A stretch of 41,118 bases of DNA from Flavobacteriales bacterium (GTDB taxonomy: Bacteria > Bacteroidota > Bacteroidia > UBA10329). The position numbers were made by a program, and so were the translations under genes. How positions within the stretch are numbered: the first letter of the stretch is position 1; each line of letters starts with the position of its first letter. The notes under the pieces were generated by a model. The model worked only from the letters and a program-made list of their open reading frames with translations. It ran no database searches and had not been told where the DNA came from. The stretch spans positions 1 to 41,118 of the forward strand of contig JBDNJH010000138.1 of the NCBI GenBank assembly GCA_041687875.1, written 5' to 3'. Of the stretch, positions 10,214 to 40,787 are shown one piece after another.

Positions 10214-10978
10214 TTATGGGAAGGTTATCCTTGAAAAGAAAAGCCCCAAGGCTGTTAGGCCACTGAATACAATCGGCAGAATCTTATACCATGCATCGAC
10301 AGATGCAAACTTGCCTTTTCCAGGCTCAACGTATAGGATGTCATTGTTGTGGAGATAGTAATATTCTGATTCAAAGAAGGCCTTTGAGGTAAGATCGAGC
10401 TTAACGAATTTGCGCTGACCCGATTCTTCCCTTATTACCAAGACGTTTACCCTTCTTGCAAAGATGGTCATGTCTCCAGCCAATCCGAGCGCCTCAACAA
10501 GAGTTATCTTCTCGTTAGGAATAGTGTATACGCCAGGGTTCAACACTTCCCCTAAAACGGTAACCTTAAAATTGCTGATACGCATATTGACCGTTGGACC
10601 AACAAGGTACTTTTCCAATAGTCCTTTTATCTCATTTTTGGCGATCTGAGTTGATTTTCCGGTGACCATAATTGATCCGATAAGTGGCATTTCAATGTTT
10701 CCTATGGCATCTACCAAATAGGTGTTGGCAACCTGTTGGTCTGTTGTTTCTCCTACAACATTAAAAAAACTGCTAGCTTCCTTGCTTAAACTTGTAACAT
10801 GTATGGATAATAAGTCACCAGCTTGGATGACGGCTTCAAAATTATGAGTGATTGGCTGAACGGAAAGCGTATCCGAAATATCCTGAAAATACGATATGTC
10901 CTTTCGGGTGATACACGACTGGGAAAGTAACAGAATGGAAGATAATAGCAAGAAGAGGATTCCCGAGCGAATTTTCAT
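10214..10978 (-). CDS. wza: Polysaccharide export outer-membrane lipoprotein
   Basis: Lipobox SQSC, Poly_export region (IQAGDLLSI, GNIEMPLIG) and SLBB region (VTVLGEV..PG, TLVEALGLAGD); directly upstream of wzc. Confidence 0.92.
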   Translation of the reverse strand: MKIRSGILFLLLSSILLLSQSCITRKDISYFQDISDTLSVQPITHNFEAVIQAGDLLSIHVTSLSKEASSFFNVVGETTDQQVANTYLVDAIGNIEMPLIGSIMVTGKSTQIAKNEIKGLLEKYLVGPTVNMRISNFKVTVLGEVLNPGVYTIPNEKITLVEALGLAGDMTIFARRVNVLVIREESGQRKFVKLDLTSKAFFESEYYYLHNNDILYVEPGKGKFASVDAWYKILPIVFSGLTALGLFFSRITFP

Positions 10979-10982
10979 GGCG

Positions 10983-10990
10983 CAAATATA
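10983..10990 (-). promoter_or_regulatory. Bacteroidota -7 promoter element for wza-wzc
   Basis: TATATTTG, a perfect TAnnTTTG match, 4 nt before the wza ATG. Confidence 0.6.
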
Positions 10991-11092
10991 GTTGTTAGGT
11001 CTATTTGAGAGTATTTAACTTAGGCACGGAATCATATGGATCAACAGCGTTCTGTCGGTGACCGTGAATTACAGTCAAAACGCGAACTTCCA

Positions 11093-13940: not shown

Positions 13941-14731
13941 TCTTTCACTTCAAACAGGGAGGCATATTCGATTTTTTCAAAAACATCACACTTCCCATCA
14001 ATGGTAGCATCTAGAATTCGTCTTCCGTCTGCTTCAAACATTGACCGTGCTTTTGCATAAGCTAATTCGGAACGATACAGGTCCGGTAGTTGCCATTTAA
14101 TGCCTTTGGGAAAGTATTCTGGATGAAAGTGGTTCGTGTCTGTACCCGTTCTGATTTCTGTTTTATTTGGTGTTCCCTTATCGGCAAAACTATGATCTAA
14201 TCCCACAATGATAACCTCATCAAATCCCATATGGTAAGCCAACTGAAGGGAAGCGTAGGTCACGGTTCCTCCAGAATACACCCCCTTCGACAGATCGCAA
14301 GAAAAACCATCTTCCAGAGCATTCTGAACATAAAAGTATCGCTGGCTTTGATTTTTGAACAGACTTCTTTTGGTCCAGTTTACAAAAGTTTCACTTTTAA
14401 GCGCATCAAGATCTTCGTGGAACTCGTCAATTACCAGTTCGTTTATTACAGTGCAATACGTGGTGCTGAAGTTTTCATTGAAAAGCAGGTAAATTCTATT
14501 CATGCCTACCGTAATCTCATCCTTGATTAATGTTAGGTCGATTTTCTTAAGACTTGGTCCGTTTGCTATCAGAAAGCACCTTTCACCCTTATGACGATTC
14601 TTAATTTCGGCTAATCGTTCATGCTGATTCTTTGCCATTTGCCATGTAAGCCAATGGGGAATGTTGGATATTCGCCTTTTGAGTCCGTCCGCTATTCTTC
14701 CTATTGTTATTTCACTGATTCTTATTCTCAT
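13937..14731 (-). CDS. DUF115/Maf-like protein, putative CMP-ulosonate transferase (sialyltransferase-like fold)
   Basis: KNRHKGERCFLIANGPSL, TVTYASLQLAYHMGFDEVIIVGLDHSF and NHFHPEYF motifs; clustered with a CMP-sugar synthetase. Confidence 0.75.
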   Translation of the reverse strand: MRIRISEITIGRIADGLKRRISNIPHWLTWQMAKNQHERLAEIKNRHKGERCFLIANGPSLKKIDLTLIKDEITVGMNRIYLLFNENFSTTYCTVINELVIDEFHEDLDALKSETFVNWTKRSLFKNQSQRYFYVQNALEDGFSCDLSKGVYSGGTVTYASLQLAYHMGFDEVIIVGLDHSFADKGTPNKTEIRTGTDTNHFHPEYFPKGIKWQLPDLYRSELAYAKARSMFEADGRRILDATIDGKCDVFEKIEYASLFEVKE

Positions 14732-22153: not shown

Positions 22154-23905
22154 TTACAATTTGACTTTTACAGCGATATTCAACTCCTTCAATTGAGCAT
22201 CATCGATTACCGAAGGCGAATCGATCATCATATCCCTTCCCGAGTTATTTTTTGGGAAAGCGATAAAGTCGCGGATGTCTTTTTGTCCGCCAAAGATGGC
22301 CGAAAGTCTGTCAAACCCAAAAGCGATGCCTCCGTGCGGTGGTGCCCCGAATTCAAAAGCATCCATCAAGAATCCAAACTGATTCTTTGCTTCTTCTTCG
22401 GTAAAGCCCAAAAGGTCGAACATGCGTTTTTGCTGGCCTTTGTCGTGAATTCGGATGGAGCCACCACCGAGCTCTGTTCCATTGATAACCAAATCATAGG
22501 CATTAGCACGAACCTTTCCTGGATCGTTGGCCATTAAATGAAGATCCTCAGGCTTGGCCGATGTGAACGGATGGTGCATAGCGTGGAAACGCTTGCTTTC
22601 CTCATCCCATTCCAACAACGGGAAGTTGACAACCCATAACGGAGCAAACTCCTGTGGATTCATCAATCCTTGCAATTCTGCAATATGAAGACGAAGCTCA
22701 GAAAGTTGCTTGCGCACTTTTTCCTCCGTTCCGGCCATTATAAAAATCAAGTCATTAGCTTCCGAATCGAATGCTTTACCCCAATCGGCTAGTTTGTCTT
22801 CGGCAAAGAATTTATCTACCGAACTTTTAAAGGTTTCATCCTCATTGTGACGGCAATAGATTAATCCTGTTGCACCAATCTGTGGTCGTTTTACGAAATC
22901 AGTAAAGCCATCAATCTGTTTTCTTGTGAATTCGTTTCCACCTTTCACGTTAATTCCGACTACCAATTCGGCTGAATCGAACACTCCGAAACCTTGTCCT
23001 TTCACCACATCGTTCAATTCTACGAATTGCATTCCGAAGCGGATATCTGGTTTGTCTGAACCGTACAACCGCATCGCATCGGCATATTCCATCCGAGGGA
23101 ATTCTTTCAGTTCAACGCCTTTCACGGTTTTGAACAGATGGCGCGTTAGCGATTCGAACATGTTCAGAATGTCTTCCTGCTCTACAAAAGCCATTTCGCA
23201 ATCCAATTGTGTGAATTCGGGCTGACGGTCGGCTCTCAAATCTTCATCGCGGAAGCACCTAACAATCTGATAGTATTTATCAAACCCAGAAACCATGAGC
23301 AATTGCTTGAAGGTTTGCGGGCTTTGCGGAAGGGCGTAGAATTGCCCAGCATTCATTCGAGACGGAACCACAAAATCTCGTGCTCCTTCGGGAGTGCTTT
23401 TGATGAGATAAGGCGTTTCTACCTCCAGAAATCCCTGCTCATCCATGAACTTTCTCGTTTCGATGGAAAGGCGATGACGAAGCTCCAAGTTCTTCCGCAT
23501 TTTTTGTCTGCGCAGGTCCAAATAGCGGTATTTCATTCTGATCTCCTCGCCACCATCAGTGTTGTCCTCAATGGTAAATGGAGGTGTTTTTGCAGCGTTC
23601 AGCACTTCAAGAGAAGAAACAATGATCTCTACATCGCCAGTAAGCATGTTCTTGTTCTTGCTTTCACGTTCGGCTACTTGTCCTTTTACCTTGATGACGA
23701 ATTCACGTCCCAAGCTGCGCGCTTTCATGCAAAGCTCTTTGTTCACCTCAAGGTTGAAGGCCAATTGCGTCATTCCATAACGATCGCGGAGATCAATGAA
23801 AGTCATTCCGCCAAGGTCGCGGCCACGTTGAACCCAACCGCTTAATGTCACTTCAGAACCAATGTGTTCTGCTCTTAATTCTCCGCAAGTATGTGAACGA
23901 TGCAT
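22154..23905 (-). CDS. aspS: Aspartate--tRNA ligase
   Basis: [56 protein letters not shown] and [15 protein letters not shown]. Confidence 0.98.
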
Positions 23906-23930
23906 TTTTGTGCTTAATTTTTTGAGCGCG

Positions 23931-23938
23931 CGAAGGTA
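23931..23938 (-). promoter_or_regulatory. Putative -7 promoter element of aspS, possibly also driving the minus-strand polysaccharide arm
   Basis: TACCTTCG followed by CGCGCTCAAAA, the same context as the cysC element. Confidence 0.5.
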
Positions 23939-23984
23939 AGGTCTTAAAGGGAAAAATGGGAAAGGAAAAAGGTAAAACGTTGAG

Positions 23985-24085
23985 CGTCATGACGAGGGAA
24001 GAATGACCGAAGTAATCTATTGATGGGATTGCCACACTTCCTTCGACAAAAGGTCAGGACAGGCAGTTCCTCGTTCGCGATGACG
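23985..24085. repeat. Degenerate REP/REPIN-like palindromic element between the divergent aspS and tadA genes
   Basis: Nested inverted arms CGTCAT...ATGACG, GACGAGGGAA...TTCCTCGTT and GTAATCT...GGATTGC. Resembles the GTCATTGCGAGG..GCAATCT / AGATTGC..CCTCGCAATGAC repeat type. Confidence 0.6.
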
Positions 24086-24101
24086 GTTACTCATGGCTCA
24101 C

Positions 24102-24109
24102 TACATTCG
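24102..24109 (+). promoter_or_regulatory. Putative -7 promoter element of tadA
   Basis: TACATTCG, 4 nt before ATG 24114. Confidence 0.5.
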
Positions 24110-24113
24110 CAGA

Positions 24114-24560
24114 ATGGAGTTGAGCATCTTTTCTGACGAACATTTTATGAAGGAAGCCTTGAAAGAGGCGCACAAGGCTTTTGATAAGGACGAAGTTCCC
24201 GTTGGAGTGGTGGTAGTGGCCAATAAACGCATCATTGCACGAGCGCATAATCTTACCGAAGTCTTGAATGACGTGACCGCCCATGCCGAAATGCAGGCCA
24301 TTACCTCAGCAGCCGATTACATTGGCGGCAAATACCTGAAAGGCTGCACCATTTACGTGACCTTAGAACCTTGCGTGATGTGTGCTGGTGCGCTTTTCTG
24401 GAGCCAAGTGGATAGCGTTGTCTTTGGCGCGGCAGATGAAAAACGTGGTTTCTCAACCGTTGGCAACCTCCTACATCCCAAAACAAAAGTGAAAGGAGGC
24501 GTGATGGCTGATGATTGTGCCGATTTGCTCAGATTGTTTTTTCAGAAGAAGAGGAAGTAA
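24114..24560 (+). CDS. tadA: tRNA-specific adenosine deaminase / nucleoside deaminase
   Basis: DEHFMKEAL, EVPVG, TAHAEM and TLEPCVMCAGA zinc motifs. Start placed at 24114 from the promoter position; the ORF extends to 24093. Confidence 0.88.
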   Translation: MELSIFSDEHFMKEALKEAHKAFDKDEVPVGVVVVANKRIIARAHNLTEVLNDVTAHAEMQAITSAADYIGGKYLKGCTIYVTLEPCVMCAGALFWSQVDSVVFGAADEKRGFSTVGNLLHPKTKVKGGVMADDCADLLRLFFQKKRK

Positions 24561-24592
24561 GGGGCATCGACAAAGCCCGCGCTACACACTGT

Positions 24593-24874
24593 TTAACTTT
24601 TTGGTCTGCGGCTGGTGTGAAAAACACTAAAAACCGTTACCGTATTATCATCTTCTGAAAAGAATACCACGAAAGGAAAGCCTCTCACCAATGCGTGCCG
24701 AAACGCGCCATACTTTATCTGAAACGATGTCGGTCTGGACGCAATGTCCGAATATGTTTCGTCCAATGAAGAGAGAAAGTGTTCACCAAGTCCAGCCAGT
24801 TTCTCCTCGTACCACAAGTATGCGTCAATCGTTTCTACTGATGCTTCTTGCCTGATAAATAGCGTGAAACTCAT
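24593..24874 (-). CDS. Type II toxin, RelE/ParE family
   Basis: 93 aa with DAYLWYEEKLAGLGEHF, FPFVVFF and VFSVFHTSRRP; ATGA overlap with the upstream antitoxin. Confidence 0.85.
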   Translation of the reverse strand: MSFTLFIRQEASVETIDAYLWYEEKLAGLGEHFLSSLDETYSDIASRPTSFQIKYGAFRHALVRGFPFVVFFSEDDNTVTVFSVFHTSRRPKS

Positions 24875-25101
24875 TTTTTCGCAGAGCGGGCCTGTTCTTT
24901 TACTTCTTCCCAGGAAAATGACCGTCCTTCTCCACTGTCAGCACGTGCTTTTCGTTCATCCAGAATTTTCTTATGCTCATCGGAGAGCTCAAAATTCTCA
25001 CTATCAGCTGACAGGATATTCTGAACCTTGACCAGCAACTCCTCGTTTTCGGTAAGCAATAATTGTTGCACCAATTCCAGTTTTATGGTTCTAACGTCCA
25101 T
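24871..25101 (-). CDS. Putative addiction-module antitoxin
   Basis: 76 aa with IKLELVQQLL, LSDEHKKILDERKA and SFSWEEVKE, typical of addiction module components paired with ParE-like toxins. Confidence 0.8.
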   Translation of the reverse strand: MDVRTIKLELVQQLLLTENEELLVKVQNILSADSENFELSDEHKKILDERKARADSGEGRSFSWEEVKEQARSAKK

Positions 25102-25173
25102 GTCAAGATCATTTTTAATGGCAATAAAGATAATGTTTATGGGAATTACGAGGGTCTTGGACGATTACACAGT

Positions 25174-25402
25174 TAGGGCAATCGCTTACTAATTTGATTG
25201 GCGAAAAACGATTAACGAACAGCGATTAACGATTTATGCCGATCGCAACGTTTAGAATGTTGATTGCTTTTACGGCATCTTATGATGTCCGTTGGTTGCG
25301 ACAATCGCAGTTCATCCGCCTCAGGCGGATCGTTTTTCGCCAATAGTTGAACCTGAAACCATATAAGTCACGAATACATAATTTTAGTAAGCGATTGCCC
25401 TA
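25174..25402. mobile_element. MITE (229 bp) with terminal inverted repeats and a 10-bp target-site duplication
   Basis: TAGGGCAATCGCTTACTAA (25174-25192) and TTAGTAAGCGATTGCCCTA (25384-25402) are perfect inverted repeats. The direct repeat ATTACACAGT flanks them at 25164-25173 and 25403-25412. No transposase inside. Confidence 0.88.
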
Positions 25403-25413
25403 ATTACACAGTT

Positions 25414-25527
25414 GGCTTTATCAAGGTTAGAAATCTTCTTCATCCTAAAACAAAAGTGAAAGGAGGCGTGATGGCTGATGATTGTGCCGATTTGCTCAGG
25501 CTGTTTTTTCAGAAGAAGCGGAAATAG
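25414..25527 (+). pseudogene. Duplicated 3' fragment of tadA (att-like direct repeat of 24447-24560)
   Basis: Encodes GFIKVRNLLHPKTKVKGGVMADDCADLLRLFFQKKRK*. A 53-bp core is identical (24480-24532 = 25447-25499); the offset is 967 bp. Confidence 0.92.
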
Positions 25528-25678
25528 TTGACGACTCTCCTGCCATCAATCATTTCAGCATCTGATAAGAAGGTCGGTGGCACTTGCGCACCTGTGTCGT
25601 AAACGGATCGTGTTCTGTTCCACACAAGAGAATATTTTGAACCGTTGCACCTGCCTATGTTAGCTGTGTACATTACGG

Positions 25679-25708
25679 GCACGCGTTACAGAAAGGCTAA
25701 ACGCGCGC
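25679..25708. repeat. Short REP-like hairpin
   Basis: GCACGCGTT...AACGCGCGC inverted arms with one mismatch, followed by TATCGGG. Confidence 0.4.
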
Positions 25709-25784
25709 TATCGGGAGCGAAGGCGAGGGATGGTCTCCTGACCATGGAAGCCTGCTAGGTGTACACCACCGCAAGGGCAGTATT

Positions 25785-26003
25785 TCAGGAAGCTAATCTG
25801 GTTTTGCCGATAGGCACAGCGTTCATCTCCATGAAACTCAGGTCGAGTATTTTGGATGCGTGCTGAATATCAACCCCAGTGATGTTTCCGTCCTTATCAA
25901 AGTCTAGCACCACACCTTCTCTCACCTCTTCAGAATCTACACTTGCAGCACTACTGAAATCGATGTAAAGCGAATCTGTTTCTGAATGATAATTGATTTT
26001 CAT
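25785..26003 (-). CDS. DUF2283 family protein (putative antitoxin)
   Basis: MKINYHSETDSLYIDF...SEEVREGVVLDFDKDGNITGVDIQHASK pattern. Confidence 0.85.
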   Translation of the reverse strand: MKINYHSETDSLYIDFSSAASVDSEEVREGVVLDFDKDGNITGVDIQHASKILDLSFMEMNAVPIGKTRLAS

Positions 26004-26230
26004 GATCTATAATTTCTGTCCATAAATGCATTGTGAATAGTTTCTCCGTCTTCCAGAACTACCACTCGTATAAACTTATCGAATTCCTTGACATAACCCC
26101 AGTATCTAATCCTTCCGTCTTCTTGAATTTCGGTACTTAGTGGTTTGGCAACCACCCTTTCACACATTTCTTTACTCAAGTACGTCCGTTTGGCCAACAC
26201 CTGTTCTTCAAAATAACGCGTTGTCTTCAA
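26000..26230 (-). CDS. Small RelE/BrnT/DUF4258-like protein (putative toxin partner of DUF2283)
   Basis: 76 aa with QEDGRIRYWG and IRVVVLEDGETIHNAF; ATGA overlap with the DUF2283 gene; upstream TATCTTCG element at 26246-26253. Confidence 0.7.
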   Translation of the reverse strand: MKTTRYFEEQVLAKRTYLSKEMCERVVAKPLSTEIQEDGRIRYWGYVKEFDKFIRVVVLEDGETIHNAFMDRNYRS

Positions 26231-26457
26231 TACTTAATGTTTACACGAAGATAAGCATACAACCCAAATACCTTGCGGGTCATAGCTATATGATGGTCGG
26301 TAATTCCTTCCAAAGAAAGGCCACTATGTAACCGAAGCATACTGGTGTGAGCTGCTGCAAACCAAGCAATCTCGCTATAGCGAGCCGTTCTTCAGGGAAG
26401 CTGGGGGAACGTAGCCACACAAGAAATCCTTCGGAACTCTTGCTAAGGGAGACGACT

Positions 26458-26688
26458 CTAAATTCTCCCCGTAAACTTGAGGCACAGTATCGCAATACTC
26501 AAAACCAAAGCGCCAATTGCCCCAATCCATCCATTGATTGCCCCTTGAAGTGGATCAATTGTTCGCATTATCATTGGCCGCTTAATGTTATTATAAATCA
26601 TATAAACCCCTAAGAGGAACCACACTGAGGCACCGATATAACTCGTTGTAAGAAAACGAAGAATAGTAAATAATTCATCAGCCATCAC
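26458..26688 (-). CDS. Small two-TM protein, putative Rhs immunity protein
   Basis: 76 aa with two hydrophobic helices; overlaps the stop of the Rhs C-terminal frame. Confidence 0.55.
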   Translation of the reverse strand: MMADELFTILRFLTTSYIGASVWFLLGVYMIYNNIKRPMIMRTIDPLQGAINGWIGAIGALVLSIAILCLKFTGRI

Positions 26689-27493
26689 TTTTCTTCTTTT
26701 TCCTCGATAAACTCAAGTGAAGAGTCCTTTGCTTTTTCAACACCTTTATCTAGCCCGAATTTCGTTGTTAGTTCTACAGCTTTCTCAATGTTTGTTGGGC
26801 TTCCCAACAAACGAGGCAAAACAGTTTGTGATTTCTTAAATGATTGTTCAATAAATTCTGACCCTTTTCGGCTAACGACTGCACTGAGAACCCTCACCGC
26901 CCCCTTGAGTAACGCAGTTTGAGAATCTCCATTCTTAAATTCAAGTCCAGTCTTTATTGCGTCCGAACCAACGGTTAGAAGCTCTCCAACAGGAGTAAAC
27001 CAGATTTATCTCCTATCGACCCAATTGCGTCACCGTAGTACTTAAGCCCCTGTTCTCCTTCGAGGTCGTTATTTGCGACAAAGTTCCAATAGTCGCTCAT
27101 GTCTACCTTGTACCCCATATCGTGGGTCTTGCCTGCATCATCAATGTAGTAATCCTGCGTTCCTATTCCTTTTGGCCCTGCAAAATTCCAGTTGTATGGT
27201 CGGTCCTTATGATTTTCTATTCGAATCTTGCATTCTCCCGTTTCCATATCCGTCCAGCGATAGCGGTATCTGCTTTCAAGACCTTCAAGCTCGATGGCAT
27301 TTATGACCATATTCTCACTGAACGCATAAGGTGAATTCCAAGGATATTCCCTTTCTAACGGATCAGTAGCGAAAAACCTACCTATGCGTGGGTCGTGCAT
27401 TCGATACTTGTAATTCAGACTATTCCCGTTCCCTTTTACCTCATCATCCTTCTCTTGTCCTTGGAAGCCGAATCTGTATCCACCCGTTATCAT
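26685..27493 (-). pseudogene. Orphan Rhs core plus C-terminal toxin module, frameshifted near 27005
   Basis: YRFGFQGQEKDDE, YRMHDPRIGRFFATDPL and SPYAFSENMVINAIELEGL form the Rhs-associated core. The reading continues in another frame as IWFTPVGELLTVGSDAIKTG...EEKEEK*. Confidence 0.8.
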
Positions 27494-27567
27494 GCTTGAA
27501 AGGTAACTGAAAAACAGGAAATCCCGTCCTAAGGTTTTAGAGGCCACCATGCAAAATGAGAAGGTCT

Positions 27568-27887
27568 ATCCTCAAACGCGGATGCCAGTAAAAAACGTTC
27601 CGAAGGCACATCCCTAAACGCGGATGCCAGTAAAAAACGTTCCGAAGGCACATCCTCAAACGCGGATGCCAGTAAATATCTTTCTGAAGGCACATCCCTA
27701 AATGCGGATGCCAGTAAAAAACGTTCCGAAGGCACATCCCTAAACGCGGATGCTAGTAAAAAACGTTCCGAAGGCACATCCTCAAACGCGGATGCCAGTA
27801 AAAAACATTCCGAAGGCACATCCCTAAACGTGGATGCCAGTAAATATCTTTCCGAAGACACATCCCCAAATGCGGATGCCCGTAAAT
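27568..27887. repeat. 42-bp tandem repeat, about 7.6 copies
   Basis: Consensus ATCCCTAAACGCGGATGCCAGTAAAAAACGTTCCGAAGGCAC. Units start at 27568, 27610, 27652, 27694, 27736, 27778, 27820 and 27862 (partial). No spacers. Confidence 0.96.
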
Positions 27888-27920
27888 AAAAAAGCCGCCC
27901 CAATTTCTTGGAGCGGCTTT
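27888..27920 (-). terminator. Rho-independent terminator of the M16 peptidase gene
   Basis: Minus strand AAAGCCGCTCCAA-GAAA-TTGGGGCGGCTTT followed by further T residues, about 30 nt after the stop. Confidence 0.8.
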
Positions 27921-27953
27921 CTGAAAGGGCGTGATACATCTAGCCCTAACCGT

Positions 27954-30824
27954 TTAATCCTTCGGACTAGGAACAGTCATGTTCACCACTTCGATTTCAT
28001 AAGGCAATTTGCTCAATCCTTCGTAGATCACAGATTTATCGCCTACCACCACAATACCCATTTTGTTGGCATCGATGTATTTCTTGGCCAAGGCGTTCAC
28101 ATCTTCCTTGGTTAGATTTTTCAGGATTTCATTCTGCTTTTCGGTGTAATTGGTCTCCAACCCGAAACGAAGAATGGTGTTAAGGAAACCTGTTTTCTGG
28201 TATCCTGCTTCATATTTCAACGCATCCTGCTGTCCTATAGAGCTTTTGAGGAATGTCAGTTCTTCATCGGTGATACCCTTCTCGGCAAAAATCTGGAACT
28301 GGTTAATGAACTCAACAATAGAACTATCGGTTGCTTCTCTTTTGAAAGCCCCTCCCGCAACGAAAGGCCCAATGTGCTCGCTACCGTTGAAGTATGTGTA
28401 AGAACCGTAAGTCCAACCTTTTTCCTCACGAAGTTTCTGGGTTAAGCGACTATTAAAGTTGCCGCCAAGGTTGAAGTTCATCAACTTGGCTTTGTAGTAT
28501 TCGCCAGTTGCATCGAATGGTAAGGCAAGGTAACCCAAGCGAATTTCAGATTGCGCAGCATCTGGTTTGTCAATCAAATAGATTTTGGTTTTTGCAGCTG
28601 CCGGAGTTGCCGGTTCTTTCGGGTAGGTTATATCGCGTTTCTTCCACGTCTTGAGGAAGCCGAGTTTTCCTAGAACCTCGTCTTTTTCGATATCTCCAAC
28701 AATAACCAGATTACTGATGTTTGGAGCGAAACGAGCTTTGTAAAAGGCCTCTACATCGGCAAGAGTTACAGCGCCCAATGTTTTTTCTGTTCCTGAGGAT
28801 GGAATGGCCATGATGTGCCCCTCTCCATAAAGAACTCTGTAGGCTTGGTTATTTGCCAAGGTTGTTGCGTCATTTACTTGATCGGCAATGGATTCCAATT
28901 GAGAGAATTTCAATCGTTCAAACTCCTCGGTTGTGAACTTTGGATGCATCATGGCTTGCTCTAAAAGCGCCAATGTGGCATCCAAGTTTTTGGTAAGCGA
29001 ACTCATGTTTACCACCACTTCTTCATCGCTAGAACTTACACTGATGGAGCTTCCAAGTTTTTCCAGCTCGCCTGCAAATTCTTCCGTGCTGTATTTCTCA
29101 GTAGTTCCTGCCATCATAGAGGCGAAAAGCTCAGCAATACCCGCTTTTGCTGGGTCTTCGTATCGGTGTCCTGTCTTGATACCAATTCGGAGGTACGTTT
29201 TTGGAATCTCATCGTTTTTGGTGCCAATAGCTTTCAGTCCATTATCGAAAGAAATCTGCCAAGAATCTGGCACTTTTATCACAGGGCTTGGACCAGAAGC
29301 AGGCTTCACACTTCGGTCAAAACCATCTTGTTCTTTGGTTGGCTTTACATATTTAAGACCTTCATATTGGGCCATGTTGGCTTTCAGTTTCTTGTCTCTT
29401 ACGTAGGTGAAATTGTCTTGCTTGGCCACCAATTGCGGTTGTCCTTTTGGATAAACGCTCAGGACAACAGCTTTTTGTCCTTTGATGTAGGTGTTGTAAA
29501 CGCGCATGACGTCAGCAGCAGTTACAGCCATATATCGCTTCAAATCCTTGTTCACATAATTGGGATTTCCCAACATGAATTGATACTGGGCCAGCATGGT
29601 TGCTTTGCCCGACACGGTTTCGAGGCTGCTAATCATTTGGCTTTCCATGGATGATTTGAATCGCTTGAGGTCGTCATCATTTACACCACGTTTTTCAAAC
29701 TCGGCAAGGGTTGCGTTAACCATATCTTCCATATCTACCAATGTTTTTCCAGGATAAGGAAGAACAGTAAGTTGAAACTGTCCGGCCAATTCTTGGCAAG
29801 GGTGGCTTACCGCAGCTTGAATAGCAACCTGACTTTTTTGGAAATTCTTGTAGAAAAGTGAGTTTTCGCTTCCTCCTAGAATATCTGAAAGTATGTCTAA
29901 CGGAGCCTCATCAGCATGATAGTTTGGAACTGTTGGATAAGAAATCTGTAGCAACGGGAAACGGATGTTATCCTCGTAAGAGATATAACGGTCTTCCGCC
30001 AGTACCACGCGCTTTTGTTTATTTGCAACCACTTCCGTTCCGCGAGGGATGGTTCCGTAATATTTCTGAGCCAGTTTGAGCACTTCGCTTGGGTCCACAT
30101 CACCAGCTACAGTAAGCGCAGCGTTGTTTGGTCCATACCAACGGAGAAAAAAACGCTTGAGGTCATCTACATTGGCGTTGTCCAAATCTTCCAAATACCC
30201 GATTGTTGGGAAATTGTAAGGATGAGTTTGCGGATACTGTGCTTGATTCACCTTTTCGCCCACCAAACCGTAAGGTCTGTTGTCGTAGCTCTGTCCGCGC
30301 TCGTTTTTAACTGTGGCGCGTTGCACTTCAAATTTCTCTTGCGTAACGGCATCCAACAAGAATCCCATTCTATCGGCTTCTAACCAAAGCGCTCTTTCGA
30401 GCTGATTGCTCGGGAGTGTTTCGAAGTAGTTTGTTCTGTCTTTGTTGGTGGTTCCGTTGAGGGTGCCGCCCGATTCTGAAACAGTTTTGAAATGCTCTTC
30501 ATCGGCTACGTTGTCTGATCCCTGAAACATCATGTGCTCAAAGAAGTGAGCAAAACCAGAACGGAAAGGCTCTTCGCGGGCCGAACCTACGTGGTAGGTC
30601 ACATCCACATGAACGATAGGATCGGAATGATCTTCATGAATGATTATTTGGAGCCCATTATCGAGCACATATTTCTCGTAAGGAATGGAAAGGCCATCTT
30701 CCAATTTTTCGACCTTTTCTACCAGTTTCGCGCCTGATGGCACTACGGTGGTCTTGTTTTGAGCAAAGCTGAAAACGGTTGTCAGAGCGAAGCCAGCAAC
30801 AAGGAATAACGGTTTTAATTTCAT
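27954..30824 (-). CDS. Secreted M16 (pitrilysin/PqqL-like) zinc peptidase
   Basis: HFFEH inverted zincin motif, NGTTNKDRTNYFE, a second M16 half with LREEKGWTYG, and signal peptide MKLKPLFLVAGFALTTVFSFAQ starting at 30824. Confidence 0.92.
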   Translation of the reverse strand: MKLKPLFLVAGFALTTVFSFAQNKTTVVPSGAKLVEKVEKLEDGLSIPYEKYVLDNGLQIIIHEDHSDPIVHVDVTYHVGSAREEPFRSGFAHFFEHMMFQGSDNVADEEHFKTVSESGGTLNGTTNKDRTNYFETLPSNQLERALWLEADRMGFLLDAVTQEKFEVQRATVKNERGQSYDNRPYGLVGEKVNQAQYPQTHPYNFPTIGYLEDLDNANVDDLKRFFLRWYGPNNAALTVAGDVDPSEVLKLAQKYYGTIPRGTEVVANKQKRVVLAEDRYISYEDNIRFPLLQISYPTVPNYHADEAPLDILSDILGGSENSLFYKNFQKSQVAIQAAVSHPCQELAGQFQLTVLPYPGKTLVDMEDMVNATLAEFEKRGVNDDDLKRFKSSMESQMISSLETVSGKATMLAQYQFMLGNPNYVNKDLKRYMAVTAADVMRVYNTYIKGQKAVVLSVYPKGQPQLVAKQDNFTYVRDKKLKANMAQYEGLKYVKPTKEQDGFDRSVKPASGPSPVIKVPDSWQISFDNGLKAIGTKNDEIPKTYLRIGIKTGHRYEDPAKAGIAELFASMMAGTTEKYSTEEFAGELEKLGSSISVSSSDEEVVVNMSSLTKNLDATLALLEQAMMHPKFTTEEFERLKFSQLESIADQVNDATTLANNQAYRVLYGEGHIMAIPSSGTEKTLGAVTLADVEAFYKARFAPNISNLVIVGDIEKDEVLGKLGFLKTWKKRDITYPKEPATPAAAKTKIYLIDKPDAAQSEIRLGYLALPFDATGEYYKAKLMNFNLGGNFNSRLTQKLREEKGWTYGSYTYFNGSEHIGPFVAGGAFKREATDSSIVEFINQFQIFAEKGITDEELTFLKSSIGQQDALKYEAGYQKTGFLNTILRFGLETNYTEKQNEILKNLTKEDVNALAKKYIDANKMGIVVVGDKSVIYEGLSKLPYEIEVVNMTVPSPKD

Positions 30825-30848
30825 GTACGGTTTTGGTTTTGAGAACGG

Positions 30849-30856
30849 CAAATATA
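30849..30856 (-). promoter_or_regulatory. Bacteroidota -7 promoter element of the M16 peptidase
   Basis: TATATTTG, 24 nt before ATG 30824. Confidence 0.6.
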
Positions 30857-31014
30857 GAAAACGCCCGATGCGTGCATTGTAACTGGAGTTGTAAATAGTG
30901 TTAAAAGGAAGAGTGGTCAAAGGCTGCTCAGACCCATATCTCCGCGGTTCATTGCGCACGTCAGCGTTGACACAGTTTATTGAACAGACTCTTCTAAAGC
31001 CTCTAACACCCACG

Positions 31015-31119
31015 TTGAAGCATACCAAACAGACAGTGAAGGATACCAAACAGAGAGTGAAGGATACCAAACAGACAGTGAAGGATACCAAACGGACAGT
31101 GAAGCATATCAAACGGATG
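31015..31119. repeat. 21-bp tandem repeat, 5 copies
   Basis: Consensus GTGAAGGATACCAAACAGACA. Units start at 31015, 31036, 31057, 31078 and 31099. Confidence 0.93.
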
Positions 31120-31186
31120 CTAAACAGCATGAAAACCATGCTGAATGCACTCTAGAATCTTCTTGAAACCCCACTTTTAACCTAAT

Positions 31187-37323: not shown

Positions 37324-38349
37324 ATGAATCAGAATCTAGACCCAACTCCTGAAGGACAATTACCGATTGACAAGGAAACGGAGCGTGCATTACGTCCTGC
37401 AGGATTCAGCGAATTCAGCGGGCAGGACAAGGTGGTTGAGAATCTCAAGATATTTGTAAAAGCCGCCAAGCAGCGGGAAGAAGCGTTGGACCACGTGCTG
37501 CTCCATGGCCCTCCCGGATTGGGAAAGACCACGTTGGCAAACATTATTGCAAACGATTTGGGTGTAAGCCTCAAACTCACATCAGGCCCAGTATTGGATA
37601 AGCCAGGTGATCTTGCTGGTTTGCTTACCAATTTGGAACCAAACGATGTACTGTTCATTGATGAGATTCATCGCCTCAGTCCAGTTGTAGAGGAATATCT
37701 CTATTCGGCCATGGAGGATTACCGAATTGATATTATGATTGAAACAGGACCGAACGCTCGTTCGGTACAGATTAATCTTAATCCGTTTACACTCATTGGC
37801 GCAACTACTCGTTCAGGCCTCTTGACATCACCGCTTCGTGCACGATTTGGCATCAACGTGCGGTTGGAATATTATGATGCACAAGTTCTATGTGGAATCG
37901 TTAAGCGCTCAGCAGGAATTCTGGAAGTTCCGATACATGAGAACGCAGCATTTGAAATTGCACGCAGAAGCCGTGGCACACCCCGAATTACGAACGCTTT
38001 GCTAAGACGTGTCCGCGATTTTGCGCAGATCAAAGGAGATGGCACCATCAACATGGAAATAACGCAGTATGCCTTGGACGCGCTCAATGTGGACAAGCAT
38101 GGTTTGGATGAGATGGACAACCGGATTCTGCGCACCATTATCGAAAAATTCCAAGGCGGTCCGGTCGGACTGAGTACCATAGCCACAGCTGTTGGCGAAG
38201 AATCGGGCACCATCGAGGAGGTTTACGAACCTTTCCTGATTATGGAAGGTTATCTCTCCCGAACTCCACGTGGCCGCCAAGCCACAGAGCGTGCCTACGA
38301 GCATTTGGGAAAAGTCAATCCCGGAAAGGCTGGAACGCTCTTCGAATAG
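37324..38349 (+). CDS. ruvB: Holliday junction branch migration helicase RuvB
   Basis: [50 protein letters not shown] and RTPRGR. Confidence 0.98.
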
Positions 38350-38374
38350 GTTTTCTCGCGTAGCTCGAAAACTA

Positions 38375-38403
38375 TTTCACGCAAAGGCGCAAAGGCGCAA
38401 AGG
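38375..38403 (+). repeat. Left repeat arm (8-bp CGCAAAGG x3) upstream of the GxxExxY gene
   Basis: TTTCACGCAAAGGCGCAAAGGCGCAAAGG; inverted near-copies at 38826-38851 and 38929-38958. Confidence 0.85.
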
Positions 38404-38417
38404 ATTATTTTTGGGTT

Positions 38418-38795
38418 ATGAATGAGAATGAAATTGCTGCGCTTGTTGTGAATACTTCGTTCATGATTCATCGTGAATTAGGGCCTGGACTCTTCGAATC
38501 GGTTTATGAAGAAGTTTTGGCCTATGAACTCGAAAACCAAGGTTTGGAGGTTGAAAGGCAAAAAACAATTGATATTGAATGGGATGGAATCAAACTCGGA
38601 GCAGGATTTAAGGCTGATATTATTGTCAATAATAAAGTGATACTCGAGCTGAAATCGGTTGAAAAAGTTCAACCGATTCATCAAAAGCAGCTTCAATCAT
38701 ATTTGAGACTGACGGGATTAAAATTGGGCCTTCTTATCAATTTCAACGAGCGGCTGATCAAAGATGGAATTCAACGTATCGTCAATGGCCTTTAG
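38418..38795 (+). CDS. GxxExxY protein (PD-(D/E)XK nuclease-like)
   Basis: HRELGPGLFESVYE, ADIIV..KVILELKSV and QLQSYLRLTGLKLGLLINF. Confidence 0.93.
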   Translation: MNENEIAALVVNTSFMIHRELGPGLFESVYEEVLAYELENQGLEVERQKTIDIEWDGIKLGAGFKADIIVNNKVILELKSVEKVQPIHQKQLQSYLRLTGLKLGLLINFNERLIKDGIQRIVNGL

Positions 38796-38825
38796 TCCAA
38801 CGTCTGGCCTACTAAGCATCCCGCT

Positions 38826-38958
38826 CTTTGCGGCTTTGCGGCTTTGCGTGAGCTACCCCGTAGTATCCGTCCAGTTTGGTCAACATTCCCTTTTCTCTTT
38901 TCTGCGTGAGTTTGTTCTAAGACTCCCTCCCTTTGCGGCTTTGCGGCTTTGCGTGAAA
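38826..38958 (-). repeat. Two inverted copies of the repeat arm downstream of the GxxExxY gene
   Basis: CTTTGCGGCTTTGCGGCTTTGCGTGA at 38826-38851 and 38931-38956, with a degenerate partial copy near 38890-38910. Confidence 0.85.
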
Positions 38959-38990
38959 GAAATCGAAGCACCCGTAACTTTTTTCTCAGC

Positions 38991-39905
38991 GTGAATAAAG
39001 AAACCCTCATAAAACAAGAAGCCAAGCGATTGGGATTTCTGCAATGCGGTATTTCAAAGGCCGGGTTCTTGGAAGAAGAAGCACCCCGATTAGAAAAGTG
39101 GCTCAACGCCAACATGCATGGCGAAATGAGCTACATGGCCAATCATTTCGATATGCGATTGGACCCCACCAAACTTGTGGACGGAGCCAAAAGCGTCATC
39201 ACTGTTTTGCTCAATTATTTTCCTGAAGAAACACAGAAAGACCCGACAGCGCCAAAGATTTCTAAGTACGCCTACGGCAGCGATTATCATCATGTGATAA
39301 AAGGAAAACTGAAAGAACTTGTCGGGTTCATCAACCAAGAAATTGGTGAAGTAGGAGGTAGGGCGTTTGTAGATAGTGCACCTGTGATGGACAAGGCTTG
39401 GGCGGCCAAGTCTGGACTAGGCTGGATTGGAAAGAACGCGAACCTCATCCATCCGAAAAACGGTTCTTTCTTCTTTATCGGAGAGTTGATTCTGGATATT
39501 GAATTACAACCTGACCAACCCATCCGCGACCATTGCGGCACCTGCACGGCCTGTATTGATGCGTGCCCGACCGAAGCCATTATAGCGCCTTATGTGGTGG
39601 ATGGTTCCAAGTGCATTTCCTATTTCACCATTGAGTTGAAAGAGGCCATTCCAACCTCAATGAAAGGCCAGTTTGACGATTGGGCTTTTGGTTGCGATGT
39701 GTGTCAAGATGTGTGCCCGTGGAATCGGTTCTCAAAACCACACTCCGAACCGCAGTTCAATCCACATCCCGAAATGCTGGATATGACCAAACGAGATTGG
39801 GAAGAACTGACTGAAGATGTTTTTAAAAAGGTTTTTCAGAAATCAGCCGTAAAACGAACGAAATTTGAAGGGCTGAAACGGAATATTGAATTCCTGAAAA
39901 AGTAG
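38991..39905 (+). CDS. queG: tRNA epoxyqueuosine(34) reductase
   Basis: [51 protein letters not shown] and [13 protein letters not shown]. The start is probably GTG 38991. Confidence 0.95.
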
Positions 39906-39906
39906 G

Positions 39907-40716
39907 TTAGTCGCAGACCTTATCAGGCATACAAACGGGTCCTTCAGAAACTTGCAGTTGTGCAGTAGGGTTTGCTTTTCGCCATTCGGAGAACGATTTC
40001 TCAAGCGTTTCTAAAAAGGCTGAAGAATCTTGTGCACCAGAGACAGCATACTTTCTATCAAAGACAAAAAATGGTACGCCTGTAACTCCCAGTTGCTGAG
40101 ATTCTTTAATATCTGCTTGCACGGCATCCGCATATTTGTCGCTTTCGAGTACAGCTTTTACTTCGTCAGCATTCAACCCGATTTCTGTTCCGAGGCTGAT
40201 GAGTGTTTCCGAATCATCAATGTTCCTCCCTTCGGTGAAGTAAGCTTTCAATAGCCGCTCTTTCATCTCGTTCTGCTTTCCGTTTGCTTTGGCGAAATGA
40301 ATAATGCGATGTGCGTTGAACGAGTTGGCAACAATGGCTTTGTCGAAATCCATTGTAATGCCCACCGAATTGGCCATTTCAGCTGCGTGACCGCCCATTG
40401 CTTTGGCCTGCTCAACAGGAATACCTTTGCTGTCAGATAAATGCTGATAAACGCTCGTGTTGAGGTCTGTTTTTAAACTTGGATTGAGCTGAAAGCTCTT
40501 CCAAATGAGTTCAATATTATTGCGCTCCGCAAATTCCGAAACGGCTGATTCAAACTTCTTTTTACCGATGTAGCAGAACGGGCAGACCACATCACTCCAA
40601 ACTTCAATTTTCATTTTTTCTTGTTGATTTTTGGATGCAATTTCCTGCGCACAAACACCACCGCTCAAAAGCAACTGAAGCATGAAACTCGTGGTGAATA
40701 GGAAGGTAAACCTCAT
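39907..40716 (-). CDS. DsbA family (FrnE-like) thiol oxidoreductase
   Basis: MKIEVWSDVVCPFCYIGK, SFQLNP and GVTGVPFFVFDRKYAVSGAQ; N-terminal extension resembling a signal peptide. Confidence 0.9.
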   Translation of the reverse strand: MRFTFLFTTSFMLQLLLSGGVCAQEIASKNQQEKMKIEVWSDVVCPFCYIGKKKFESAVSEFAERNNIELIWKSFQLNPSLKTDLNTSVYQHLSDSKGIPVEQAKAMGGHAAEMANSVGITMDFDKAIVANSFNAHRIIHFAKANGKQNEMKERLLKAYFTEGRNIDDSETLISLGTEIGLNADEVKAVLESDKYADAVQADIKESQQLGVTGVPFFVFDRKYAVSGAQDSSAFLETLEKSFSEWRKANPTAQLQVSEGPVCMPDKVCD

Positions 40717-40787
40717 CCGATTAATTCTTTCAACTCGCTGAACAACGGATAAAGATAAAGAGTTCGTTTGCCTACTTCATCAGGAAC

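Follow-up and report, generated by a model that had tools for sequence, protein, structure and literature searches.

A toxin-antitoxin cassette between two copies of the tadA 3′ end in a Flavobacteriales genome, with similar tail duplications behind other genes

The stretch of DNA analysed here, hereafter the window, comprises 41,118 nucleotides of a Flavobacteriales bacterium (contig JBDNJH010000138.1 of GenBank assembly GCA_041687875.1) and is one contig, C152, of a metagenome bin of 308 contigs and 2.9 Mb that is 90% complete (genome G000 of our collection). It carries an intact gene for a tRNA adenosine deaminase, tadA, whose 3′ end occurs a second time 967 bp downstream as a displaced tail. 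Between the two tails lie a candidate toxin-antitoxin (TA) pair and a miniature inverted-repeat transposable element (MITE). A second inserted block follows the orphan tail and extends to a remnant of the native site in front of a convergent M16 peptidase gene. The coordinates of these features are given in Table 1, together with the loci of similar build found on other contigs of the same genome.

Table 1. Features of the tadA region in the window, and host genes of the same genome with a duplicated tail (C numbers denote contigs; aa, amino acids; ORF, open reading frame)
Feature	Position	Strand	Evidence or cargo
tadA, intact tRNA adenosine deaminase gene, 155 aa	24093..24560	+	Pfam MafB19-deam / dCMP_cyt_deam_1; NCBIfam TadA PRK10860 E 1e-37, below equivalog cut-off
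Tail copy 1, working 3′ end of tadA	24447..24560	+	Homology to copy 2 secure from ~24459
53-nt core of tail copy 1	24480..24532	+	Identical to 25447-25499
Tail copy 2, orphan 3′ end of tadA in displaced position, frame open as far as its own TAG stop	25414..25527	+	Core 25447-25499; second tail-peptide match, E 3e-18
RelE/ParE-superfamily toxin candidate, 93 aa	24593..24874	-	Pfam ParE_toxin PF05016 E 2.9e-4, 21.8 bits
Antitoxin candidate, 76 aa	24871..25101	-	PF09720 Unstab_antitox 27.7 bits, cut-off 23.3; TIGR02574 E 2.8e-4, below cut-off
MITE, 231 bp, 20-nt perfect terminal inverted repeats	25173..25403		Target duplication TTACACAG at 25165-25172 and 25404-25411
Host gene tadA	C152 (window)		RelE/ParE-like toxin and antitoxin, with MITE
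Host gene uvrA	C81		ParE fragment and small ORF
Host gene ligA	C219		Protein with type IX secretion system (T9SS) sorting tail
Host gene for amino-acid kinase	C190		PADLOC candidate defence pair PDC-M29A/B (E 1e-135, 9e-45)
Host gene for PIG-L deacetylase	C58		PemK/MazF (95.5 bits) and small ORF
Host gene for glutamine amidotransferase	C128		ParE fragment and small ORF
Host gene pntB	C260		Three small ORFs without matches
Host gene of unknown family, 700 aa	C200		DUF433/DUF5615 pair
Host gene for M23 peptidase	C200		C92 peptidase with ParE pair (48.6 bits); two small ORFs without matches
aspS (aspartyl-tRNA synthetase), conserved divergent neighbour of tadA	22154..23905	-	Pfam tRNA-synt_2 E 4.8e-122; adjoins tadA in 12/19 loci of relatives
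Second inserted block, 2.36 kb, no long flanking repeat	25528..27883		DUF2283 pair, small ORFs, Rhs fragment, tandem repeat; absent from empty sites of relatives
DUF2283 gene, 72 aa	25785-26003	-	Pfam DUF2283 E 4.5e-18
76-aa ORF upstream of and overlapping the DUF2283 gene	26000-26230	-	No family matches
Orphan Rhs C-terminal fragment	26975-27550	-	Rhs_assc_core TIGR03696, 36.6 bits
42-nt tandem repeat, 7.5 copies, 88% matches	27574-27886		Tandem Repeats Finder (TRF)
Native-site remnant: last tadA codon and stop (AAATAA), bidirectional terminator hairpin	27884..27922		Comparison with L015 and other empty-site relatives
M16 peptidase gene, convergent, closing the hotspot	27954..31139	-	Pfam Peptidase_M16 / M16_C; downstream of tadA in 14/19 loci of relatives

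A repeat finder, blastn and a codon-by-codon comparison agreed on the duplication. The repeat finder returned a direct repeat of 101 nt (24459-24559 and 25426-25526, 90% identity, offset 967), and a blastn search of the 2.9-Mb assembly with the tadA tail gave a match of 111 nt at 88% identity (E ~1e-33) and no copies other than these two. The codon comparison placed an exact match of 53 nt, the core, at 24480-24532 and 25447-25499. A preliminary description of the locus had put the duplicate at 114 nt; some 101-111 nt of it are secure, because the first six codons of that stretch (24447-24464) match weakly, with two synonymous and three non-synonymous differences. Its statement on the remainder was borne out: from NLLHP to the stop, nine out of nine differing codons are synonymous, four before the core and five after it, TAA/TAG included, and the same 32 residues, NLLHP to K, are encoded by both tails. 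At the nucleotide level, 6/21 positions differ on one side of the core and 5/28 on the other. Homology to tadA ends at about 25414-25426, which means that copy 2 does not represent another complete gene.

The core itself can vary: in 16 relatives the tadA tail matches it at only 38-46 of its 53 positions (7-15 differ), and the two copies in the window therefore share their core by recent descent. The flanks of the core, judged by their substitutions, appear to be tadA alleles under selection at the protein level, with a divergence like that between the tadA genes of different species. Both the earlier suggestion that the tails stem from working tadA genes of different lineages and that of recombination inside the tail are strengthened by these comparisons, since the differences are synonymous only and a mosaic of diverged, identical and again diverged sequence is what recombination would leave.

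Two other ways of producing such a repeat were considered and set aside. Homology-facilitated illegitimate recombination of a linear fragment predicts that copy 1 is all donor and copy 2 all resident, whereas the identical core is bordered by differences to its left and to its right. Had a transposase-like enzyme made a long target-site duplication, the duplicates would be identical when fresh and the orphan would decay at random; against this, all nine differences are synonymous and the repeats range from 47 to 144 nt among the loci described below.

The arrangement is not an assembly artefact. The stretch is present, at more than half of the sampled words, in seven public runs of freshwater and estuary metagenomes from several studies, and contigs were compared from four runs (X1, X2, X7 and X8) belonging to three studies. 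An artefact would consist in the tadA genes of two strains, or a free circle and an empty site, having been mis-threaded through the core or the MITE. The genome is after all a metagenome bin of 308 contigs, the public contigs, built at k=31, break at the core and cannot phase its flanks, and the MITE is multicopy and of higher depth. Against this, single contigs span the core, tail 1, toxin, antitoxin and MITE in X1 (24503-25219) and X2 (24522-25214), one X2 contig spans the MITE and tail 2 (25212-25461), and a variant contig of X1 runs uninterrupted from the MITE through tail 2 into the downstream DNA (25338-25551). The two sides of the MITE are tied together because the 8-10 bp target duplication is identical on both, and the end of tadA homology at about 25414-25426 leaves no room for a second full gene. 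Eight further loci, and two other genomes, moreover show this architecture. With its junctions present in several independent runs, the chimeric assembly that the preliminary description had named as a possible refutation is largely refuted, and we regard it as highly improbable. No joint skipping the 967 bp and no circle junction were seen in the contigs of the four runs, which drop rare forms and cannot show absence.

The DNA between the tails contains, as had been proposed, a candidate ParE-type TA pair and a MITE. In the PDB the toxin candidate matched an entry named 'Toxin' (7ycs, E 0.0032) and ParE2 (8c26, E 0.12), and it had no match in NCBIfam or PADLOC. The antitoxin candidate, which passes the cut-off of PF09720 ('addiction module component'), lies directly upstream in the same operon, the two ORFs overlapping by 4 nt (24871-24874). 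A word-based search of 5.8 billion proteins recovered one relative of the toxin candidate, at 41%, and in genome contigs relatives were found at five distant loci (36-49% identity), none of them near tadA. With so few and such distant relatives, the cassette could not be traced to a donor. The MITE was inserted into the upstream region of the antitoxin candidate. It is short and non-coding, has inverted repeats and an identical target duplication of 8-10 bp (TTACACAG on each side), and related copies occur on contigs C133, C218, C304 and C128 of the same genome and in other genomes of the genus. Subtracting the MITE and one target duplication leaves a repeat period of 728 bp, in agreement with the ~0.73 kb estimated before. 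An Rfam scan of 23800-28100 gave a chance miRNA match only (E 0.67), and a promoter and terminator scan returned sites no more frequently than in shuffled sequence and missed the native terminator.

Comparison with relatives showed what this site looks like elsewhere. The collection held 24 species genomes of the order, and 19 tadA loci were taken from 17 genomes of the genus. In 14 of these 19 loci both tadA and the convergent M16 gene were present. Ten of the 14 are empty, with the tadA stop, a bidirectional terminator and the M16 stop following one another over a spacer of 56-96 nt, and the other four contain 1.0-5.1 kb of other genes. Two further loci have cargo behind tadA, methyltransferase-like genes (L013; read by eye from the translations) and a DUF2283 gene (L028). 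The tadA-M16 spacer is a hotspot for cargo, and the empty sites and variable cargo that the preliminary description had called for were found. No relative has a decayed full-length tadA paralogue, which removes the second refutation it had foreseen. In the window the remnant of the native terminator lies at 27884-27922, and all DNA from the tadA stop to 27883 has therefore been inserted.

A duplicated tail is present in one of the relatives. At L028, in genome G014, an exact 55-nt repeat of the tadA tail, its copies 349 nt apart, surrounds a single DUF2283 gene of 72 aa, and the last residue of the working tadA differs from that of the orphan tail. This was the only duplication in an own-tail search of 18 loci of relatives. 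A search with the tail peptide matched 20 of the 24 genomes, and in two of these, G000 and G014, an additional, orphan copy lies on the contig of the first. No direct tail duplicate was found in a set of 80 metagenomic tadA loci that are more distant, of which 61 extend 1 kb or more downstream and 78 are no more than 72% identical. The M16 side of the hotspot can duplicate too: at L018 (G015) a 76-nt direct repeat with 93% identity (10969-11044 and 14316-14391), derived from the spacer beyond the M16 stop, brackets 3.3 kb of a 5-kb tadA-M16 insert. Two bins, G008 (C12, C55) and G020 (C168, C238), contain two full but different aspS-tadA loci each, of which those of G008 are one occupied and one empty; strains or species are probably mixed in both bins.

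The tadA locus is not alone in its genome. A genome-wide self-comparison for local direct repeats with one copy ending at the stop of a long ORF flagged nine repeat pairs behind eight host genes. A ninth host gene, pntB, escaped the filter for the sole reason that its repeat continues for 51 nt beyond the stop. The cargo at these loci consists mostly of TA pairs. Tail repeats vary in length and boundaries (47-144 nt) and the cassettes measure 0.35-2 kb. Six pairs have a longest identical run of 47-77 nt, a length of the order that homologous exchange requires, and in four pairs it is 17-27 nt. Codons that differ within the homologous stretches are mostly synonymous, with synonymous to non-synonymous counts of 8:1 for the M23 gene, 9:0 for PIG-L, 6:2 for pntB and 3:0 for the kinase; the orphan tails of uvrA and ligA are decayed. 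The same scan found none in 617 kb of unrelated metagenomic loci and, by the filter, none in 255 kb of loci of the genus, where the L028 repeat is nevertheless present; the filter misses some. The MazF cassette was not found beside its host gene in 17 relatives that have this gene. In another species, G008, two orphan pntB tails surround a cassette homologous to that of G000, next to a ParE pair. There the pntB locus (L124/L125, end of C11 and start of C47) shows the native tail followed by tandem terminator-like hairpins, the ParE pair, which is homologous to one on C200 of G000, a HicB-like gene and the two orphan tails; the assembly breaks inside this array.

Between the convergent 700-aa and M23 genes on C200 lies an array (37775-40761, L117) of three or four small cassettes, set apart from one another by tail copies, of which three belong to one gene and two to the other. 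Here a minus-strand M23 tail (38520-38619) meets, at about 38620, a plus-strand tail of the 700-aa gene, both of them truncated at the 5′ end. Such a back-to-back junction is what a circularised donor fragment spanning the whole inter-gene cassette would leave after one crossover: a fragment reaching from inside one gene's tail across the cassette into the other's would have closed on itself and entered by a single crossover in one tail. Local tandem duplication would also give this junction but predicts duplicated cargo, which is not seen.

That last process deserves consideration at all loci. The repeats could have arisen by local, microhomology-mediated tandem duplication followed by allelic replacement and gene conversion, with no mobile cassette involved. 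Tandem duplications are common in bacteria, the C200 junction shows a possible short microhomology, the G014 repeat is 100% identical over its 55 nt as a fresh duplicate would be, and the patchy identity is in keeping with gene conversion. The cargo should then be present twice, whereas the units here and elsewhere hold different genes; flanks with synonymous differences only would need several further imports, each ending inside a 100-nt tail; and the homologous cassettes behind pntB tails in two species require transfer, or long retention, of whole units. We therefore judge a purely local origin unlikely.

The preliminary description had seen in tadA a dedicated landing pad, and this part of it has to be given up. 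Because eight other host genes are duplicated in the same way, specificity of the att-site type is unlikely and homology is the simpler driver. The recombinase content of the genome was surveyed with the tyrosine (PF00589) and serine (PF00239) families. Two full and one partial tyrosine recombinases were found, on C227, C250 and C206, and no match to the serine family. The locus is thus free of an integrase, as originally stated, and none of the tail-duplication contigs of G000, C152 included, carries a recombinase gene. Five relatives in which the tadA site is occupied or duplicated have 21 PF00589 matches between them, all away from the tadA contigs, although all of these are draft genomes in which absence is not proven. 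An integron cassette was also considered and rejected, as no integron-type integrase is present on the contig and each repeat is the tail of the neighbouring gene itself.

A site-specific element could still have been at work if the cassette were its remnant, or had been mobilised by it in trans, the tails being attL and attR. Integrative elements are well known to enter genes at the 3′ end and restore the frame, and cis-mobilizable elements (CIMEs) are defined as elements that kept attL and attR and lost their integration genes (PMC5704250). Such an element would agree with the identical core of ~50 nt, with the direct repeats and with the empty sites, and the two tadA cases, in G000 and G014, share an overlapping stretch of the tail. 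This has to be set against nine host genes, each with its own tail, in a genome with two or three tyrosine recombinase genes and none of them nearby, against the recombinase-free tadA contigs of five relatives, and against repeats of variable length and boundaries (47-144 nt) around cassettes of merely 0.35-2 kb. We consider a site-specific origin quite unlikely.

With some confidence we favour instead a process without integrase, in which homology drives the insertion or exchange of cassettes equipped with captured gene tails. Nine host genes, with a tail of their own in each case, cannot be accounted for by an enzyme specific for a tadA sequence, but they can by homology. At tadA, a TA cassette of 0.73 kb, not yet carrying the MITE, would have entered by homologous recombination inside the tail, on DNA from a related lineage that brought its own copy of the tadA tail. 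The product would be a working tadA with its last 28 nt imported, and an orphan tail imported at its start and resident at its end. The working gene would then read resident, shared, imported and the orphan imported, shared, resident. A single Campbell-type crossover by a small circle carrying the tail would produce this mosaic, with the core as the point of exchange; alternatively, a double crossover may have occurred in which donor or recipient was already two-tailed, the core then being the stretch between the exchange points. RecA-type recombination through a circular or ends-in intermediate would suffice, the captured tail serving as a portable homology arm that needs no dedicated recombinase. 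The same process may have acted at no fewer than eight other housekeeping genes of G000, delivering mostly TA pairs. The addictive property of such pairs would favour retention after insertion, and it is plausible, by analogy, that the pair hinders loss or excision of the cassette, in line with reports that TA systems stabilise islands. A further step, which we put forward only tentatively, is that these are recombinase-free mobile TA and defence cassettes that use one or both tails of the flanking genes as arms, excise as small circles by recombination between the tail copies and re-insert, by a single crossover that rebuilds the gene, at its orthologue in related cells.

Several observations weigh against the homology-driven account. 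Between tails that are ~15-25% diverged, a single crossover alone does not predict an exact core of 53 nt; this would need a pre-existing shared patch, tails already duplicated in donor or recipient, or later gene conversion. The origin of the first duplication at each gene is not explained by homology. Tail duplication of tadA is rare, in 2/20 genomes of the order and 0/80 metagenomic loci, and among the relatives searched the orphan tails of the M23 and kinase genes occur in G000 only. At the tadA locus the contigs, the only material covered, showed neither a circle nor an excision product nor an empty-site joint. The toxin candidate scores below the 23-bit Pfam cut-off of PF05016 (21.8 bits). 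Finally, in a fragmented bin of 308 contigs and 90% completeness, recombinase-bearing elements may be unassembled.

The second block, between the orphan tail and the native terminator, shows features of its own. Its DUF2283 gene and the overlapping 76-aa ORF (25785-26230, minus strand) resemble a second small TA-like pair. Two motifs of ~40-50 nt (25577-25629 and 25675-25715) recur on C157 and C99 and in several genomes of the genus, and there is a similar stretch behind tadA on C12 of G008; the motifs resemble a small family of interspersed repeats. In the Rhs fragment the core motif is followed by ~100 residues of unassigned family, and upstream of it an Rhs repeat body is lacking. Between it and the native terminator lies the 42-nt tandem repeat, the unit of which reads on the minus strand as a hairpin followed by a T run; a 136-aa ORF at 27529-27939 (minus strand) is this repeat read through. 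Farther along the window, between ruvB and queG, a gene of the PD-(D/E)XK nuclease family (PDDEXK_3, E 8e-41; 38418-38795, plus strand) is possibly inserted as well.

These loci bear on the practical question of how chromosomal TA pairs and small defence systems move where no integrase or transposase is in sight. The nine loci of G000 bear the same scar, a displaced and still readable tail of the host gene, and one junction looks like that of a closed circle. If homology alone moves such cassettes, the ends of housekeeping genes would be general docking sites, cargo could spread between related species without mobile-element genes, and annotation pipelines that seek integrases would miss this traffic.

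Among known processes, Campbell-type insertion, in which one homologous crossover of a circle leaves hybrid direct repeats of the shared segment, is matched by the observed mosaic. It is known mainly from plasmids and laboratory suicide vectors. In the open-access literature searched, we found no description of it as a natural route for sub-kilobase TA cassettes, and nothing relevant on tadA as an integration site or on TA cassettes with gene-tail duplication. Core defence hotspots, chromosomal cargo sites between core genes, are reportedly exchanged by flanking homology. Such hotspots, those of E. coli included, resemble the tadA site in that two conserved genes enclose a changing set of TA, defence and restriction-modification genes and in that many relatives have the site empty. 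They are, however, described without a duplicated tail of the flanking gene, and in E. coli the cargo is reported to be almost always on recognisable mobile elements (PMC10121019).

The orphan arrays of rhs and cdiA come close in another respect. There too a displaced 3′ fragment is kept downstream, sharing a near-identical stretch with the full gene, cargo modules pile up, and homologous recombination is the proposed engine (Koskiniemi et al. 2014, PMC3967940). In those arrays, however, it is a different toxin domain that the displaced end specifies, and the exchange serves this purpose (PMC3967940); here the peptide is the same for both tails, which act only as flanks, a separate TA operon forms the cargo and the hosts are housekeeping genes.

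CIMEs, as described by Guedon et al. (2017, PMC5704250), share with the tadA cassette the small, non-autonomous insert behind a conserved gene, flanked by direct repeats that include the gene's 3′ end while the gene stays intact; in the window the repeat lies at 24459-24559 and 25426-25526, and tadA is open over 155 aa. Tandem accretion is possible in CIMEs, and here a second block follows the orphan tail. Unlike in CIMEs, no matching integrase-bearing element was found, in draft genomes where absence is not proven, and many host genes of one genome are used in place of one attachment-site specificity per family. Repeat length is variable here, again unlike in CIMEs, and the two tails differ synonymously, as orthologous alleles do.

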